Positions 47,086 through 53,084 of a stretch of 64,000 nt of DNA are shown piece by piece. The DNA is from an uncultured Nitrospirota bacterium (lineage in GTDB: Bacteria > Nitrospirota > Thermodesulfovibrionia > Thermodesulfovibrionales > Dissulfurispiraceae). Position 1 is the first letter of the stretch. Each line of letters begins with the position of its first letter. A program made the translations under genes and the position numbers. Location of the stretch: assembly GCA_964540275.1 (NCBI GenBank), contig CAZIMB010000001.1:27210-91209 (forward strand), read 5' to 3'. A model generated the notes under the pieces. It made no database searches, was not told where the DNA came from, and saw nothing but the letters and a program-made list of their open reading frames with translations.

Positions 47086-48858
47086 TTAATCCTTAGCCTT
47101 AGTTTTTAAATCCCTAATTTTTAGCTCTACTCTCTCTTTGAGGCCTTCTTCCTTTTCATGAAATTTTAATGCCTCATTCCATGCTTTTATTGCTTCATCA
47201 ATATTACCTAATTTCTCATATACATCACCTAAATGCTCATAAATAACTGGATCATCTTTCACATATTCTATTGCCCTTTTAAGTGTTTTAAGGGCCTCAT
47301 CAAGTCTATTAAGCCTGAAGTATACCCACCCGAGGCTGTCAATTATATAACCACTATTCGGCTTTAGTTCAATTGCCCTTTCTATAAGATGCAATGCCTC
47401 CATTAGGTTAATATTCCTATCAGCATAGGAATAGCCAAGATAGTTTAATGAATCAGCATTATTAGGGTTAATCTCAATTGCTCTTTCTAAGGCATTGACC
47501 ATATCATTAAATCTATCAGTCTTGTCATATACAATGGCAATTATAAAATATAATTCATCATTGTCTGGGAAACGAAAAAGGGCGTCTATTAGAATATCTT
47601 CTGCTTTTGCATATTCCTTCATTTGTATATATGTGTTTGCAAGATATGCATAGATTTCGGGCTTTTCTTTCTCAAAGGTCAATATTTCTTCATAAATATT
47701 AACAGCATCACTATAAAGCTTCTGAACTGAATATATAGAGGCCATAGAAAGAAAGGCATTTATATTTTTCGGATCAATTGATAATATCTTTTTTAATTCA
47801 TCTATTGCCTCATTATACCTTTTTAATCCTTCCAATGAAAGGGCAAGATAATATCTCACTGCTATATCATCAGGCTTTGCCTCAAGTATTAATCTAAATG
47901 CATAAACAGACTTTTCATATTGCCTTTCTTGTAAATATAAAAAGCCTAATCTCTGATATATATCCAGATTTTTAGGAATAATTTTTAAAAGTTCTTCTAA
48001 CTCACCAATGGCCTTATCATAAGATTTCTCTGTTATATATAGTTGGGTGAGTCTTTCCCTAGCAAAGAGATTATAGGGATTAATTCTCAAAGCTGTTTTA
48101 TAATAGCCTTCCGCAGAAATCAAATCCCTTTTTGTCTCGCTAATAATACCAAGATTTGTGTAAGCAGCATCAAAATTTTGATTTATAGATATAATTTTTA
48201 AAAATATCTCTTCAGCCTTTGTATATTCCTTTTTTTCTAAATTAATAGAGCCGATATAATAAAGAGCCATTGAATTTTCAGGTTCCATTTCTATAATTTT
48301 TTCAAGGAGTTCTAATGATCTATTATAATCGCCAACAGTGGCATATAAAATTGCAAGCATTAGGGCATGATCTGTCTTTTCAGGTTCTAATTTTATAAGC
48401 CTTTCATATATCTCTATAGAATTTTTTATCCTTTTTTTTGAGTTATATAGCTCAGCCAAAAGTGACAGAGCAGGTGCATAATTAGGATCAGAAACAATTA
48501 TTTCCTCTAATACTGGTATTGCCTCATCAATCCTTCCAAGCCTAACCAGCATCTGGGCAAATTTTTTCTTTAGATATAGAGAATCTGGATCTAATGCTAA
48601 TGCCTTTGAATAACGATTTAAAGCCTCTTCCCATTTAGCAGTTATCTCTGCTTCATACCCAAGTAAAAATTCAAGATAGGCATCTCTTTCAGAATTTTGT
48701 GAGAGGGAAGTGGTATCTATCTCTCTTAATTCAGTCAATCCATTAGTAAAAATGATAAAGTCGCTGGCTTTAAGATTTGTAGAATATGAGACCATTAGAA
48801 GATATAAAAAAATAGTTAAAGTGATAAATAAGGTTTTTTTTTGTAAATTTAAAAGCAT
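47086..48858 (-). CDS. Tetratricopeptide-repeat protein with N-terminal signal/anchor
   Basis: 590 aa. About 15 consecutive 34-residue TPR units (..A...Y..AL..DP.N..A...LG..Y..). Hydrophobic N-terminus. Confidence 0.8.
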   Translation of the reverse strand: MLLNLQKKTLFITLTIFLYLLMVSYSTNLKASDFIIFTNGLTELREIDTTSLSQNSERDAYLEFLLGYEAEITAKWEEALNRYSKALALDPDSLYLKKKFAQMLVRLGRIDEAIPVLEEIIVSDPNYAPALSLLAELYNSKKRIKNSIEIYERLIKLEPEKTDHALMLAILYATVGDYNRSLELLEKIIEMEPENSMALYYIGSINLEKKEYTKAEEIFLKIISINQNFDAAYTNLGIISETKRDLISAEGYYKTALRINPYNLFARERLTQLYITEKSYDKAIGELEELLKIIPKNLDIYQRLGFLYLQERQYEKSVYAFRLILEAKPDDIAVRYYLALSLEGLKRYNEAIDELKKILSIDPKNINAFLSMASIYSVQKLYSDAVNIYEEILTFEKEKPEIYAYLANTYIQMKEYAKAEDILIDALFRFPDNDELYFIIAIVYDKTDRFNDMVNALERAIEINPNNADSLNYLGYSYADRNINLMEALHLIERAIELKPNSGYIIDSLGWVYFRLNRLDEALKTLKRAIEYVKDDPVIYEHLGDVYEKLGNIDEAIKAWNEALKFHEKEEGLKERVELKIRDLKTKAKD

Positions 48859-48921
48859 AACTTATTATCACATATATAAGTTAAAAACTAAAAGGTAATT
48901 TGAACATTTTTCTTTTCTATG

Positions 48922-48950
48922 AAAAAAAGGAGGCAATCTGCCTCCTTTTT
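48922..48950 (-). terminator. Rho-independent terminator closing the rSAM/peptide operon
   Basis: Stem GGAGGCA (48929-48935) / TGCCTCC (48939-48945), 3-nt loop. On the minus strand T7 follows it (plus-strand A7 at 48922-48928). On the plus strand T5 follows it, so it could act in both directions. Confidence 0.8.
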
Positions 48951-48975
48951 CATATTGTATTATTGTCATAATTTT

Positions 48976-49038
48976 TTAGCAAGAACCTTTGCACTTACAG
49001 GTAGTTGCTGCCTTCTTGGAGATCTTAATTATTTTCAT
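48976..49038 (-). CDS. Unannotated 20-aa Cys-rich peptide MKIIKISKKAATTCKCKGSC (candidate RiPP / cofactor precursor)
   Basis: Hand-translated, below the ORF-track size cutoff. ATG at 49038-49036, TAA at 48978-48976. SD GGAGGTG (49045-49051) lies 6 nt upstream. It sits 48 nt downstream of the radical SAM/SPASM gene stop on the same strand, and the terminator follows 26 nt later. Confidence 0.6.
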   Translation of the reverse strand: MKIIKISKKAATTCKCKGSC

Positions 49039-49086
49039 AAAAGACACCTCCCTTTCTTAGGGTATATTCTGTGCTTCATGCAACAG

Positions 49087-50238
49087 TTATAATTTAATTA
49101 TACCATACATATGGCATTTGTAAAGATCTTTTTTACCTTTATTACCGCTTTGTTCTGCCCTATACCTGCATCCCCCTCTGCAAAGATCTATAAACCTACA
49201 ATTAATTTTATTGCATTCCAGATCCTCCAGTTTGATAGGATTTATTTTCTTCCACGTCTTAATAAGACCCTCATCAATAGAACCAACAGGCATGTCAGAA
49301 TAAAAGGCGCATTTGGATATATTGCCATTTGCTAAAACTGATACAAGATTAAGTCCACATCCATATCCACCTTCACTACTATGTAGCCCTGTTCCAAAAC
49401 CAAAATTCAAATATTTTCCACCTATCTCTGGAGAGACCATCAAAGATTGATCTTTTTTAAGATTGCCCACTTCACATGGCACATCTACTGTCCACTCCTT
49501 AATCCCTAATTTCTTAAATAAATTCTCCATCGCCTCAAACTCATCAAGATTTCCCCTGTGAACCATTGTGGCAATAGAAACAGTAATCCCAAAATCAATA
49601 GATTTAATTAATTTTTCCATGACTATTTTATATGTACCCTTGCCTCTTAAGATCTCATGACCCTTTTCCATGCCGTCAATACTAAACTGTATCTCATCAA
49701 CATTAAGCCTTTTTATAAGATCATCTTTTAGTAATAGACCATTTGTAAATAGGATCTTTCTGAAGCTGTATCCTGAGAGCATCTCATTTATCTCATTAAA
49801 ACCACTATGCATACATGGCTCACCTCCTGTTATAAGAAGGCGAAGCCCCTGCATGTATTCAAACTCATCTAATATATTTTTTATTTTATTTAGATCCAAC
49901 TCTTGATTTTTTGGTTGGCCTATATAACAATGGCTACACCTTAAATTGCATTTATCAGTAATCTGGAGTTCTAAATATCTTAAAGATGGCTCAGGTGATT
50001 TAACAAGAGGAGGTCTTTTTATATCAACCCTTTCTTTTGTTAAAATCCCTTCAGATAGGCAATATTCAATAAAACTATGATCTGCTGTTTTTCCATTACA
50101 TCCATCAGATGAGGCACACCTTTTTAAGAAATCAAAGGCAGGATCATCTAATTCATAGAGATTATCTTCTTTTATATTATAAACACATGGTTTTTCTAAC
50201 CACTTTAGGGCACATTTGTCAGAAAGATAATATCTCAT
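49087..50238 (-). CDS. Radical SAM / SPASM-domain peptide-modifying enzyme with an N-terminal extension of about 85 aa (candidate RRE)
   Basis: Radical SAM CNLRCSHC. C-terminal SPASM-type Cys pattern C-x15-C ... CNKINCRFIDLCRGGC ... C (7 Cys, two auxiliary clusters). The N-terminal LKWLEKPCVYNIKEDNLYELDDPAFDFLKRC region precedes the core. Confidence 0.85.
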   Translation of the reverse strand: MRYYLSDKCALKWLEKPCVYNIKEDNLYELDDPAFDFLKRCASSDGCNGKTADHSFIEYCLSEGILTKERVDIKRPPLVKSPEPSLRYLELQITDKCNLRCSHCYIGQPKNQELDLNKIKNILDEFEYMQGLRLLITGGEPCMHSGFNEINEMLSGYSFRKILFTNGLLLKDDLIKRLNVDEIQFSIDGMEKGHEILRGKGTYKIVMEKLIKSIDFGITVSIATMVHRGNLDEFEAMENLFKKLGIKEWTVDVPCEVGNLKKDQSLMVSPEIGGKYLNFGFGTGLHSSEGGYGCGLNLVSVLANGNISKCAFYSDMPVGSIDEGLIKTWKKINPIKLEDLECNKINCRFIDLCRGGCRYRAEQSGNKGKKDLYKCHMYGIIKL

Positions 50239-51257
50239 CTTTTATAATATAAAATATCTTTGCTAACATTCCACACATTACCTGTACCAGTTAGAAGCAT
50301 AGCCTGTGATAATTCACCCTTTAACTTTTTAAGAACAAATTCTACCCCTTCCTTGCCACCACCAATTGATGCAATTGCCAGAGGTCTTCCTATAAGTACA
50401 GCATCAGCACCCAAAGCTAACATTTTTAAAACATCTGGACCGCTTCTTATGCCTCCATCTGCAAAGATTGTTATTTTCCCCTTAACTTTTTCAGCTATTT
50501 GAGGAAGCACATCAGCAGAACCAGGCATATGATCAAGTATCCTCCCGCCATGGTTAGATACTACTATTGCCTTAGCACCTGTATTTACAGCTAATTCTGC
50601 CTCATCAGGTGTCATGATTCCTTTAATTATAAAAGGCAAATTTGTTGATTGCACTAATTCTACTAATTCTTCAAAACTCTTTGTGCTTACAGGCTGGCCC
50701 TTTAAAGCCATAGTAATTAAGCCTGCTCCATCAATATCTATTCCTACTGCTAATGCACCTGCATCCTCAGCAATCCGAATACGTTTTATAATCTCTTCCT
50801 GTGACCGTGGTTTAATAATAGCAATCCCCCTACCATTATGTTTTGATATTGCCCTAATACCACTGCCATACATCTCTGGATCTGCTCCGTCTCCAGTCAT
50901 AGCAATTGTGCCTGCCCTAATTGAACCAGCTACAATCTCATAAATAAATTCCTCTTCCGTTATTCTCCCACCCATATTATAAGTAGTACCTGTCATAGGT
51001 GCTACTAGTATAGGCATAGTAAGTTTTATACCCCACAAGTCAAAGGATGTATCTGGTTCCTTTTTATTATGAATAGTACGCATATTTAATTTGTAAGAAG
51101 CTAATGCCTCTATATTTGCAATAAATGAAGAACCGGTTCCAATCCCACCCATTCCAGGAACCTTACCAGCACATGCCCTACCATTACATATAGGACATAC
51201 AATACAGAAATCTGCAAGCTTTTCTTTAGCGTTTTTTCTTATAGTTTCTATATCCAT
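50235..51257 (-). CDS. FMN-dependent alpha-hydroxy-acid oxidase/dehydrogenase family protein (LldD-like TIM barrel) with an N-terminal 4-Cys motif
   Basis: CIVCPICNGRAC near the N-terminus. TIM-barrel FMN-site pattern ...PILVAPMTG..., IIKGI, VVSNHGGR, ADGGIRSGPDVLKMLALGADAVLIGRP. The stop overlaps the rSAM start (ATGA at 50235-50238). SD GGGGGA upstream. Confidence 0.85.
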   Translation of the reverse strand: MDIETIRKNAKEKLADFCIVCPICNGRACAGKVPGMGGIGTGSSFIANIEALASYKLNMRTIHNKKEPDTSFDLWGIKLTMPILVAPMTGTTYNMGGRITEEEFIYEIVAGSIRAGTIAMTGDGADPEMYGSGIRAISKHNGRGIAIIKPRSQEEIIKRIRIAEDAGALAVGIDIDGAGLITMALKGQPVSTKSFEELVELVQSTNLPFIIKGIMTPDEAELAVNTGAKAIVVSNHGGRILDHMPGSADVLPQIAEKVKGKITIFADGGIRSGPDVLKMLALGADAVLIGRPLAIASIGGGKEGVEFVLKKLKGELSQAMLLTGTGNVWNVSKDILYYKR

Positions 51258-51608
51258 CTCTTATCCCCCGCTACAGATTTTTTTTAATTTTAACCTAAAA
51301 ATCAATTTTCTTTCAGCTTAGACACAAAAATATAAAATTTTTGCTTCTTTTCAATAATAAATTATGCTCCATTTTTTCAGCTCCATGACAACGTATATTT
51401 TTAAAGTAAAACTTTAAAAAATAGTTGTCCATTAATTTTTTTTTTTAAAAGCTGCAGAACCTTCTTTATATTTAACAGGACACTCTTGAGGAAAGAAGAC
51501 CTCAATTAGAAGGTATTATGACAACATAACTTCCATCCTTCCTTTCATCCCGACTTTTTTATCATAATTTGTATATCTATTCATAAATTTGATAAACTTT
51601 TTGTTAAC

Positions 51609-53084
51609 ATGTTTTTAATTAATTCATTAGAAAGAAAACTTTACCAACTTATAATCTGCCGACTTGAAGGAGATAAAATTAATGATAATGCATATTGTGA
51701 TAGGATATTTAGGCTATTAGAAAAGGGAATTGGCGGATTTATAATATTTGGTGGCATTAAAGATCATATCAAGCCATTTATTGATAAACTCCAATCTTCT
51801 TCAAAAACCCCTCTTTTTATAGCTTCCGATATAGAACGTGGCGTAGGACAACAGATTAAAGGGGCTACAGATTTCCCTTGTGCAATGGCTATTGCCTCAG
51901 CCATTGATAGAAATAACCCTTCTGATATATCCATTCTTGAGGAAATGATCAGGGCTATTTCCCTTGAGGCAATAGATATAGGTATTAATATGCCTCTCAT
52001 ACCGGTCTTAGATATAAACACAAATCCTGATAATCCAATAATATGCACTAGGGCATTTTCAGATGACCCCCTAACAGTCTCTTTCTTTGGATCTAAATAC
52101 ATAGAAATTATGGAAGATTTAGGGCTAATAACCTGTGCTAAACACTTTCCTGGACATGGTGGCACATCTGTAGATTCCCACATTTCATTGCCTGTCATTA
52201 ATAAATCAAAAAAAGATTTAATGGAAATGGAGATGGTGCCATATATTAATGCAATAAAAACTGGCATCAGCAGCATAATGGTAGGTCATTTAAGCATCCC
52301 CGCCTTAGACAAAAGGCCTGCAACGGTCTCAAAAAAGATAATCACTGGGCTTTTAAAAAGGGAGTTAGAATTTAAAGGTTTAATACTCACTGATGCCTTA
52401 AATATGGATGCCATTAGGGATTACGAAAACTTATATTCAGAGTGCCTAAAAGCTGGAGCTCACATACTTTTACACCCGGAAGATCCTGATACAACAGTCA
52501 AAGAGCTGAATAAAGCACTTGAATTAGGGATGATTAATGAGACAATTATCGATGAAACAATTGAGAAAATCCTAAAAATAAAGGTTAGAATAGGAGATAT
52601 AAAAATTCATAAATGCGATTATTCAAAAAATTATGCACTATCTTCAGAAATATCAAAAATGTCTATTACCGCTGTTAAAAAAGGGGATGCCCTTTTGCCT
52701 ATTTCAGATTTTAATAATGTAAGGTTAGTTTTTGCGGGTGACACTAATTTATATCAATCGTCGTTATTAAATGAATACTTTAAGTCTAATAATTTAAGTC
52801 CTTCATCTAAAACAGTTTTTATAGCAATATTTACCAAAATCTCAGCGAGGGAGAAGGCATTTACAATAAGTGAGGAGGAAATAGAAAAAATACAAAAATT
52901 GATTAAAAATTCAGGCTATTCTATTGTAGTATCTTTTGGAAATCCCTATATTTTAAAGTTTTTTAAAGAGTCTGATATTCTTATTTCAGCCTATGACTCA
53001 TCAGAAGTGGCACAGATGGCTGTAATAGGGTGCTTAAAAGGAGAGATTCCTTTCAAGGGAAAATCCCCCATAAAGATCCCATAA
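51609..53084 (+). CDS. nagZ: Glycoside hydrolase family 3 beta-N-acetylhexosaminidase (NagZ-like, with extra C-terminal domain)
   Basis: GH3 motifs DIERGVGQQ, NMPLIPVLDIN, KHFPGHGGTSVDSH, ILTDALNM. 491 aa versus about 340 aa for minimal NagZ. Confidence 0.8.
   Translation: MFLINSLERKLYQLIICRLEGDKINDNAYCDRIFRLLEKGIGGFIIFGGIKDHIKPFIDKLQSSSKTPLFIASDIERGVGQQIKGATDFPCAMAIASAIDRNNPSDISILEEMIRAISLEAIDIGINMPLIPVLDINTNPDNPIICTRAFSDDPLTVSFFGSKYIEIMEDLGLITCAKHFPGHGGTSVDSHISLPVINKSKKDLMEMEMVPYINAIKTGISSIMVGHLSIPALDKRPATVSKKIITGLLKRELEFKGLILTDALNMDAIRDYENLYSECLKAGAHILLHPEDPDTTVKELNKALELGMINETIIDETIEKILKIKVRIGDIKIHKCDYSKNYALSSEISKMSITAVKKGDALLPISDFNNVRLVFAGDTNLYQSSLLNEYFKSNNLSPSSKTVFIAIFTKISAREKAFTISEEEIEKIQKLIKNSGYSIVVSFGNPYILKFFKESDILISAYDSSEVAQMAVIGCLKGEIPFKGKSPIKIP

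Follow-up and report, generated by a model that had tools for sequence, protein, structure and literature searches.

Analysis of a 64,000-nucleotide stretch of DNA from an uncultured Nitrospirota bacterium of the Dissulfurispiraceae (contig CAZIMB010000001.1, positions 27,210 to 91,209; the whole stretch is hereafter called the window) points to a compact system of two genes. These encode a dedicated radical S-adenosylmethionine (SAM) enzyme, with an N-terminal domain resembling the recognition element (RRE) of peptides that are made by ribosomes and modified after translation (RiPPs) and a C-terminal SPASM domain, and an unannotated peptide of 20 residues, which this enzyme would mature to a cell-internal product. 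A probability of roughly 0.6 is assigned to this reading, in which the adjoining gene for a flavin mononucleotide (FMN)-dependent alpha-hydroxy-acid oxidoreductase (hereafter the flavoenzyme) is separate from the functional unit. The original prediction, made from the sequence alone, had proposed a three-gene, mycofactocin-like cassette, in which the radical SAM enzyme modifies the Cys-rich tail of the peptide and the LldD-like flavoenzyme oxidises the product to a redox cofactor. Its pairing of radical SAM/SPASM enzyme and Cys-rich peptide proved to be a real and conserved enzyme-substrate-type pair, whereas its three-gene logic did not hold.

The window peptide, MKIIKISKKAATTCKCKGSC, is the product of a 20-codon open reading frame (ORF) and is composed of a basic N-terminal half and the core TCKCKGSC, with three Cys, the last of which is the C-terminal residue. 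Over 72 loci anchored on the radical SAM gene, its consensus is M-[TVK]-I-[KR]-K-[VI]-S-K-K-x-[AS]-x-T-C-K-C-K-[SGN]-S-C, and eight residues (I3, T13, C14, K15, C16, K17, S19 and C20) are invariant. Several features argue that the ORF is translated and under purifying selection: a constant length of 20 codons, a conserved ribosome-binding site (a GGAGG-type block kept across loci 6-9 nt 5' of the ATG), synonymous codon variation at each of the invariant residues, an entropy by codon position of 0.51 / 0.50 / 1.35 among 171 distinct DNA versions of the ORF, and, in these same versions, a conservation that starts with the ribosome-binding site and does not extend past the stop codon. A chance ORF is ruled out by the 171 DNA versions and by a degenerate pattern for the last eight codons plus the stop, which matches once in the window (0.00 expected). 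The peptide, tried in ten variants, is missing from about 15 billion predicted proteins, so that this conserved gene constitutes an annotation gap; it matches no Pfam family and no NCBIfam model at E <= 0.01, and it contains no cleavage motif.

The second line of evidence is the linkage between the two genes. Relatives of the radical SAM enzyme were sought in one genome per GTDB species (at least 487 genomes encode one) and 80 loci were retrieved with flanking DNA; a contig scan with the single enzyme sequence gave no match, and a rerun with an alignment (A1) gave matches. Hundreds of relatives are 53-68% identical to the window enzyme, essentially all from Nitrospirota of the Thermodesulfovibrionales/Dissulfurispiraceae type. 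A 20-codon ORF is located 40-110 nt 3' of the radical SAM gene, on the same strand, in 72 of the 85 loci of the census anchored on that gene. A search in the other direction, in which metagenome contigs were queried with a degenerate DNA pattern of the last eight codons of the peptide, found the radical SAM gene directly upstream in 46 of 72 informative loci; codons 13-20 are fixed by the search pattern in this metagenome subset, and codons 2-12 as well as the enzyme-anchored set are unbiased. The family also reaches metagenome-assembled genomes (MAGs) of Desulfobacterota / Thermodesulfobacteriota, and the linkage persists in this Desulfobacterota-type clade, in which the radical SAM enzyme is only 44-46% identical and the peptide ends in CKCKASC (one copy has Met for T13). 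One further locus (L016; JBLMWN010000183.1) is from a MAG labelled Betaproteobacteria; its sequence and context fit the Nitrospirota clade, and the label is probably a binning or labelling error.

The flavoenzyme gene does not travel with this pair. Among 118 loci with a near-full radical SAM gene and at least 1.1 kb of upstream DNA, the flavoenzyme is encoded within 6 kb in three only: (i) L084, where it adjoins the radical SAM gene as in the window and where the radical SAM enzyme and the flavoenzyme are 87% and 93% identical to those of the window, respectively, (ii) L062, where it is found about 3.6 kb upstream and nadE and rsmI stand between the two genes, and (iii) L189, where it is on the same strand, about 3.5 kb upstream of the radical SAM gene. 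It was found in none of the 30 peptide-anchored loci with at least 2.6 kb of upstream DNA, nor beside the next-closest radical SAM relative (L118, 60% identical). Furthermore, the complete genome of Dissulfurispira thermophila has the same synteny, with ampG-nagZ on one side of the radical SAM gene and TPR-ispE-prs on the other, and nagZ abuts the radical SAM gene directly, with no flavoenzyme gene. In another lineage, a glycogen phosphorylase gene occupies the position of the flavoenzyme gene. It is concluded that the flavoenzyme gene was inserted between nagZ and the radical SAM gene in the narrow lineage of the window and is merely co-transcribed. The pairing of a radical SAM enzyme with an LldD-like enzyme is a local accident of gene order and not a second mycofactocin-type pathway.

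The radical SAM enzyme matches PF04055 (E 6.3e-19), and C97, C101 and C104 of its CxxxCxxC motif, the [4Fe-4S] cluster site of the radical SAM core, are invariant in alignment A1. In its C-terminal region, the NCBIfam SPASM model TIGR04085 is matched above the cut-off (37.9 bits, cut-off 27, E 1.8e-9); the Pfam SPASM model PF13186 does not match the enzyme. Seven Cys of the SPASM region (C294, C310, C342, C347, C353, C357 and C375) are invariant in the same alignment, and C255, upstream of them, is nearly so; these eight conserved Cys would be enough to ligate two auxiliary [4Fe-4S] clusters. The solved relatives best matched by sequence are SkfB (E 2.5e-22), BlsE, MoaA, CteB and PqqE, and the best fold matches of a full-length AlphaFold2 (AF2) model (predicted local distance difference test score, pLDDT, 72) are SkfB (E 3e-15) and SuiB. 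The anaerobic sulfatase-maturating enzyme anSME also counts among the best solved relatives, the closest of which are maturases that form thioether or peptide cross-links. The original prediction had noted an N-terminal extension of the size of an RRE. Residues 1-86, modelled alone with AF2 (pLDDT 88.2), form four beta strands followed by two helices, and the top 13 Foldseek matches of this model in the PDB are all RiPP recognition domains, those of TbiB1, SuiB, lasso B1, CteB and LynD; TM scores of the best matches are about 0.5-0.6, and the top one has an E of 0.026 and a TM of 0.55-0.59. The domain can be called RRE-like by predicted fold, short of proof. A profile search of the domain against PDB sequences returned noise only.

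A plausible course of maturation can be proposed from this architecture. The RRE-like domain would bind the peptide at its conserved, basic N-terminal half (M-x-I-[KR]-K-[VI]), after which the radical SAM cluster would cleave SAM and remove a hydrogen from one of the core residues (TCKCKxSC). With its thiol positioned at an auxiliary SPASM cluster, at least one of the three Cys could then form a thioether ring, either sactionine- or ranthionine-like. The outcome judged most likely is thus that Cys becomes joined to a nearby residue by at least one intramolecular thioether; the enzyme may also catalyse another Cys-directed radical chemistry. The product is more likely to be a peptide or cofactor of the SCIFF (six cysteines in forty-five residues) kind, presumably kept within the cell, than a bacteriocin, because the core is invariant class-wide, the pair is inherited vertically at housekeeping loci and sits among housekeeping or oxidative-stress genes, and no protease, exporter or immunity genes accompany it.

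Features of the locus are listed in the table below. The physical arrangement described in the original prediction (three minus-strand ORFs, an ATGA overlap, a 48-nt gap, a ribosome-binding site, a terminator and the TPR and nagZ flanks) is present in full.

Features of the radical SAM-peptide locus and its flanks (window coordinates; TPR, tetratricopeptide repeat)
Feature	Position	Strand	Details
Flavoenzyme gene (FMN-dependent alpha-hydroxy-acid oxidoreductase)	50235..51257	-	340 aa; PF01070
Radical SAM gene (candidate peptide maturase)	49087..50238	-	383 aa; RRE-like + radical SAM + SPASM
RRE-like domain of radical SAM enzyme	50029..50238	-	about aa 1-70; AF2 model + Foldseek
CxxxCxxC motif of radical SAM enzyme (C97, C101, C104)	49927..49950	-	invariant in alignment A1
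SPASM domain of radical SAM enzyme	49114..49359	-	aa 294-375; TIGR04085
Peptide gene, 20 codons, unannotated	48976..49038	-	ATG at 49038; TAA at 48976-48978
Shine-Dalgarno GGGAGG of peptide gene	49047..49052	-	8 nt 5' of ATG
Intrinsic terminator after peptide gene	48922..48950	-	hairpin GGAGGCA-GAT-TGCCTCC 48929-48945; T7 48922-48928
Promoter-like site in 3' end of radical SAM gene	49097..49124	-	TTTACA, 16 nt spacer, TG-TATAAT; 11/12
TPR gene, downstream flank	47086..48858	-	then ispE, prs
nagZ, upstream flank, divergent	51609..53084	+	then ampG

The ATG of the radical SAM gene overlaps the TGA of the flavoenzyme gene as ATGA, and 48 nt separate the radical SAM gene from the peptide gene. Because the two enzyme genes overlap, the flavoenzyme is co-expressed with the radical SAM enzyme in the lineage of the window, where its gene is co-transcribed and translationally coupled with the radical SAM gene. 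The promoter-like site within the end of the radical SAM gene, of the near-consensus extended -10 kind, could give the peptide gene a separate and higher transcription; it is a consensus match only, the best in the region, where matches in total are no more numerous than expected from shuffled sequence. Because the terminator hairpin is flanked by a run of A and, on its opposite side, by a run of T, it could act bidirectionally. When 48500-51800 was scanned with Rfam, the only matches were sub-threshold ones to this hairpin, and no riboswitch was found upstream of the flavoenzyme gene. The TPR protein was rejected as a partner, since it accompanies the pair only in the clade with the ispE-prs synteny.

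The flavoenzyme is a member of the FMN_dh family (PF01070; 217.9 bits, gathering score 24.9, E 2.6e-64), with the same TIM-barrel FMN_dh fold as the FMN-dependent L-lactate, glycolate and hydroxy-acid oxidases. Its K212, H236 and R239 are invariant, and the Lys and the His/Arg motif SNHGGR align to L-lactate oxidase. Unlike in these oxidases, its N-terminal half is divergent and bears a C-x2-C-x2-C-x4-C motif (residues 18-29, CIVCPICNGRAC), which no solved structure covers. The motif reported by the original prediction is thus present, but it is not the extra feature that had been assumed: C18, C21, C24 and C29 are invariant in 13 of 13 diverse members of the family, and the motif is constant across Firmicutes, Desulfobacterota and Nitrospirota. 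An adaptation to the radical SAM enzyme is ruled out by this invariance in family members of other phyla. The motif may be an uncharacterised Fe-S or Zn site of an anaerobe-type hydroxy-acid dehydrogenase. Relatives of the flavoenzyme number thousands, and those 64-72% identical to it are encoded in Carboxydothermus hydrogenoformans, Syntrophobacterales, Smithellaceae, Desulfobaccales and Thermodesulfovibrio isolates; for the Firmicutes and Desulfobacterota, the identity is 65-70%. In Carboxydothermus, the gene lies between one for a sigma-54 activator and those for a dihydrodipicolinate synthase (DHDPS)-family aldolase and a CitMHS transporter; GlcD-/LUD-type lactate-utilisation genes and a GntR regulator gene precede it in a Firmicute that forms spores; in Thermodesulfovibrio, it is solitary and adjoins ispDF. 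The flavoenzyme is below all NCBIfam equivalog cut-offs, including that of LldD (NF033901; 139.9 bits, cut-off 550), to which only its C-terminal half aligns. PDB 7F20 was rejected as a much closer relative, as it is a tandem-fused lactate oxidase with a doubled score; no paper on this entry was found. The flavoenzyme is a separate alpha-hydroxy-acid (lactate-type) oxidoreductase of anaerobes, outside the conserved system, and probably acts as a dehydrogenase rather than as an oxidase, because its family occurs in strict anaerobes.

In most other lineages, the pair is accompanied by a small Cys-rich protein. In 71 Nitrospirota loci, a 113-aa, internally duplicated form is encoded divergently from the radical SAM gene, in most cases at a distance of 40-150 nt (for example L032:4313-4654 (-), and about 70 other loci), and a 54-aa form is found in the Desulfobacterota-type loci (L211:4853-5017 (+), L212:4853-5017 (+)). 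Each half of the 113-aa protein aligns with the 54-aa protein (BLASTP E 3e-6 and 2e-5; hhalign probability 97%), searches with the 113-aa form assigned the Cys-rich protein to no Pfam or NCBIfam family, and all 79 matches of this protein adjoin a radical SAM gene. In most lineages, it probably represents a third component of the system; it was not found in the 64-kb window or in the clade of loci to which the window belongs. The Desulfobacterota-type order is the 54-aa ORF, which overlaps the start of the radical SAM gene, the radical SAM gene, the peptide gene, an ATP-grasp-like gene and a flavin adenine dinucleotide (FAD)-dependent amine-oxidase-like gene. In this CKCKASC clade (L211:6416-8892, L126:2112-4780, L159:5753-8194, L111:1173-2666), the ATP-grasp-like gene follows the peptide on the same strand and the gene for the FAD-dependent amine-oxidase/phytoene-desaturase-like protein comes next in either orientation, with a rubrerythrin close by; the ATP-grasp-like and FAD-dependent genes may encode additional tailoring enzymes.

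The largest Nitrospirota clade (L016-L083) encodes, within about 4 kb of the radical SAM gene, two rubrerythrin-family proteins, an Fe/Mn-superoxide dismutase (SOD)-like protein, a nitroreductase, a flavodiiron protein, a DsrC-like protein and the alpha and beta subunits of a 2-oxoacid:ferredoxin oxidoreductase. A 95-97-aa protein that recurs in this clade has no Pfam or NCBIfam family. Genes for export, proteases or immunity were not found among the recurrent neighbours of the pair. The redox and stress neighbours are a hint of a redox or stress role for the pair, and its conservation, as with that of SCIFF, suggests a housekeeping or stress function, in cell physiology rather than antibiosis. 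A more specific proposal would make the peptide the precursor of an undescribed redox-active or metal-binding small cofactor or protectant, with a role like that of pyrroloquinoline quinone (PQQ) or mycofactocin but a different chemistry, in the oxidative-stress or redox homeostasis of strictly anaerobic Nitrospirota and Desulfobacterota; the dedicated radical SAM enzyme would produce it, in most lineages with the Cys-rich protein as a helper. This proposal is tentative and, on the present evidence, rather unlikely; if it is true, the precursor is among the shortest known for any RiPP and invisible to annotation.

Several observations weigh against the two-gene interpretation or against parts of it. 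The radical SAM enzyme is only 13-19% identical to SkfB and SuiB (19% to SkfB), and its next-best NCBIfam matches include the non-peptide cofactor enzymes NirJ, AhbD and MoaA. The best Foldseek match of the N-terminal domain is not significant, no Pfam or NCBIfam sequence model (PqqD, RRE) matches this domain, and its RRE status depends solely on the fold ranking. Thioether formation is a guess that draws on weak homology. For the most part, the oxidative-stress neighbourhood is a single block of inherited synteny and not the outcome of many independent events. The flavoenzyme gene overlaps the start of the radical SAM gene in the window and in L084, and may have a functional link with it that is specific to this lineage. 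Finally, 13 of the 85 radical SAM loci lack an adjacent peptide gene, with no variant peptide within the retrieved flanks, and about 18 peptide copies are distant from any radical SAM gene, so that the two genes are separable.

These last observations are the basis of an explanation in which the peptide is an independent, stress-related thiol- or metal-binding molecule with a metallothionein-like CKCK motif, and the radical SAM enzyme acts on some other substrate, either a cofactor or a protein. The orphan peptide copies stand beside unrelated genes, such as those for an M23 peptidase, an aldehyde dehydrogenase, a multihaem cytochrome, an HD domain protein, and a Fur-family regulator with a catalase (L145, 1110-3262, where the peptide is encoded 50 nt after the latter two); a common theme among these contexts was considered and rejected, as they are heterogeneous. 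In L116 (948-4283), genes for a nitroreductase, an SOD-like protein, a rubrerythrin and a 95-aa unknown protein form a string that ends 20 nt before the peptide gene, on the same strand, and the radical SAM gene is convergent. The second-tier matches of the enzyme to NirJ and AhbD would also fit this explanation. It is nevertheless judged distinctly unlikely: same-strand adjacency is found in 85% of radical SAM loci and in two phyla, the enzyme has a putative peptide-binding domain that is RRE-like by fold, and unlinked extra precursor copies are common in RiPP systems.

That the peptide is a secreted antimicrobial sactipeptide or ranthipeptide bacteriocin, with a cleaved leader and an exported product, is suggested by the architecture of a putative RRE, radical SAM core and SPASM domain beside a short Cys-rich peptide, by the closest solved relative SkfB, which matures a killing factor, and by the strongly cationic character that the mature peptide would have. 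However, the TCKCKxSC core stays invariant even where the identity of the radical SAM enzyme falls to about 45%, whereas bacteriocin cores normally vary; genes for a peptidase, an ABC exporter or immunity are not among the recurrent neighbours; the pair is inherited vertically throughout the class, at a housekeeping locus (nagZ / TPR-ispE-prs); and the peptide has only 20 residues, without a cleavage motif. A bacteriocin is for these reasons very improbable. The three-gene, mycofactocin-like model, which can draw on the ATGA overlap and single terminator in the window, on a gene order repeated in L084, L089 and L090, on the membership of MftD in the Pfam superfamily of the flavoenzyme, with a partial match to its model, and on other flavoproteins near the pair in other clades (FAD amine-oxidase-like, nitroreductase), is largely refuted by the neighbourhood census and has become hardly credible, as adjacency is limited to one lineage (radical SAM identity at least 87%), the flavoenzyme family sits in lactate and organic-acid contexts in other phyla and not beside this radical SAM family, and its Cys motif is a family trait; the lack of co-occurrence across genomes and the occurrence of the flavoenzyme in such other contexts had both been named by the original prediction as outcomes that would speak against it.

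The two-gene system was lastly compared with characterised ones, and the original suggestion that it is undescribed is supported. The radical SAM enzyme scores below every NCBIfam equivalog cut-off, with WgkB as the best model (98 bits, cut-off 650), followed by ScmE, NirJ and AhbD; no named family or found paper matches the pair, and the literature searched held nothing specific for the peptide motif, for radical SAM/SPASM enzymes or RiPPs in Nitrospirae or Thermodesulfovibrio, or for Nitrospirota ranthipeptides. As is proposed for the system described here, the radical SAM/SPASM enzyme of mycofactocin acts on the C-terminus of a short peptide, and the likeness of an FMN_dh-superfamily neighbour is confined to the arrangement in this window. 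By every defining feature tested, the system is not mycofactocin. Indeed (i) the radical SAM enzyme reaches 64.3 bits with the MftC model (TIGR03962), below the cut-off of 265, (ii) the flavoenzyme reaches 127.3 bits with the MftD model (TIGR03966), below the cut-off of 470.85 and with only its C-terminal 140 residues aligned, (iii) the peptide ends in CKCKGSC, not in Gly-Val-Tyr, and is not recognised by the MftA model, and (iv) MftB, MftE and MftF are not encoded at the locus, which is flanked downstream by TPR, ispE and prs and upstream by nagZ and ampG.

Among the sactipeptide synthases (SkfB/AlbA), SkfB is the best solved match of the enzyme by both sequence and fold, and a thioether formed from Cys is the most plausible chemistry. 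The score with the SkfB model (TIGR04403) is 64.6 bits, below the cut-off of 300, and, in contrast to SkfB, the SPASM domain of the present enzyme is full, genes for export or immunity are lacking beside it and the peptide core is invariant. The PQQ system (PqqA, PqqD, PqqE) likewise combines a radical SAM/SPASM enzyme with a precursor of very small size (PqqA, about 23 aa), and has an RRE to which the RRE-like domain here may correspond; that its product is a cofactor explains the strong conservation of its peptide. The radical SAM enzyme scores 50.4 bits with the PqqE model (cut-off 381); in contrast to PqqA, the window peptide contains neither Glu nor Tyr, and PqqB, PqqC and PqqF are absent.

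The SCIFF system of Clostridia (CteA-CteB) is likewise a compact association of a radical SAM-SPASM enzyme, with an RRE to which the RRE-like domain here may correspond, and a short Cys-rich peptide, and shares the class-wide conservation of the peptide, the absence of a dedicated exporter or protease and a suspected non-antibiotic role; furthermore, CteB is among the best sequence and fold matches of the window enzyme. No SCIFF model stands among the best 25 matches listed for this enzyme, none of which reaches its cut-off. The SCIFF precursor has about 45 residues and six Cys, whereas the window peptide has 20 residues and three Cys; the peptide gene here follows the enzyme gene, the hosts are Nitrospirota and Desulfobacterota, and most lineages carry the additional Cys-rich helper protein without a known family. 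The radical SAM enzyme and the unannotated 20-residue peptide with its invariant CKCKxSC end, found in two phyla of strict anaerobes, are a better-defined target than the three-gene cassette and, being two short genes, an easily testable one. In summary, the system belongs to none of these families by curated models, yet it would work like SCIFF-CteB or PqqA-PqqDE.

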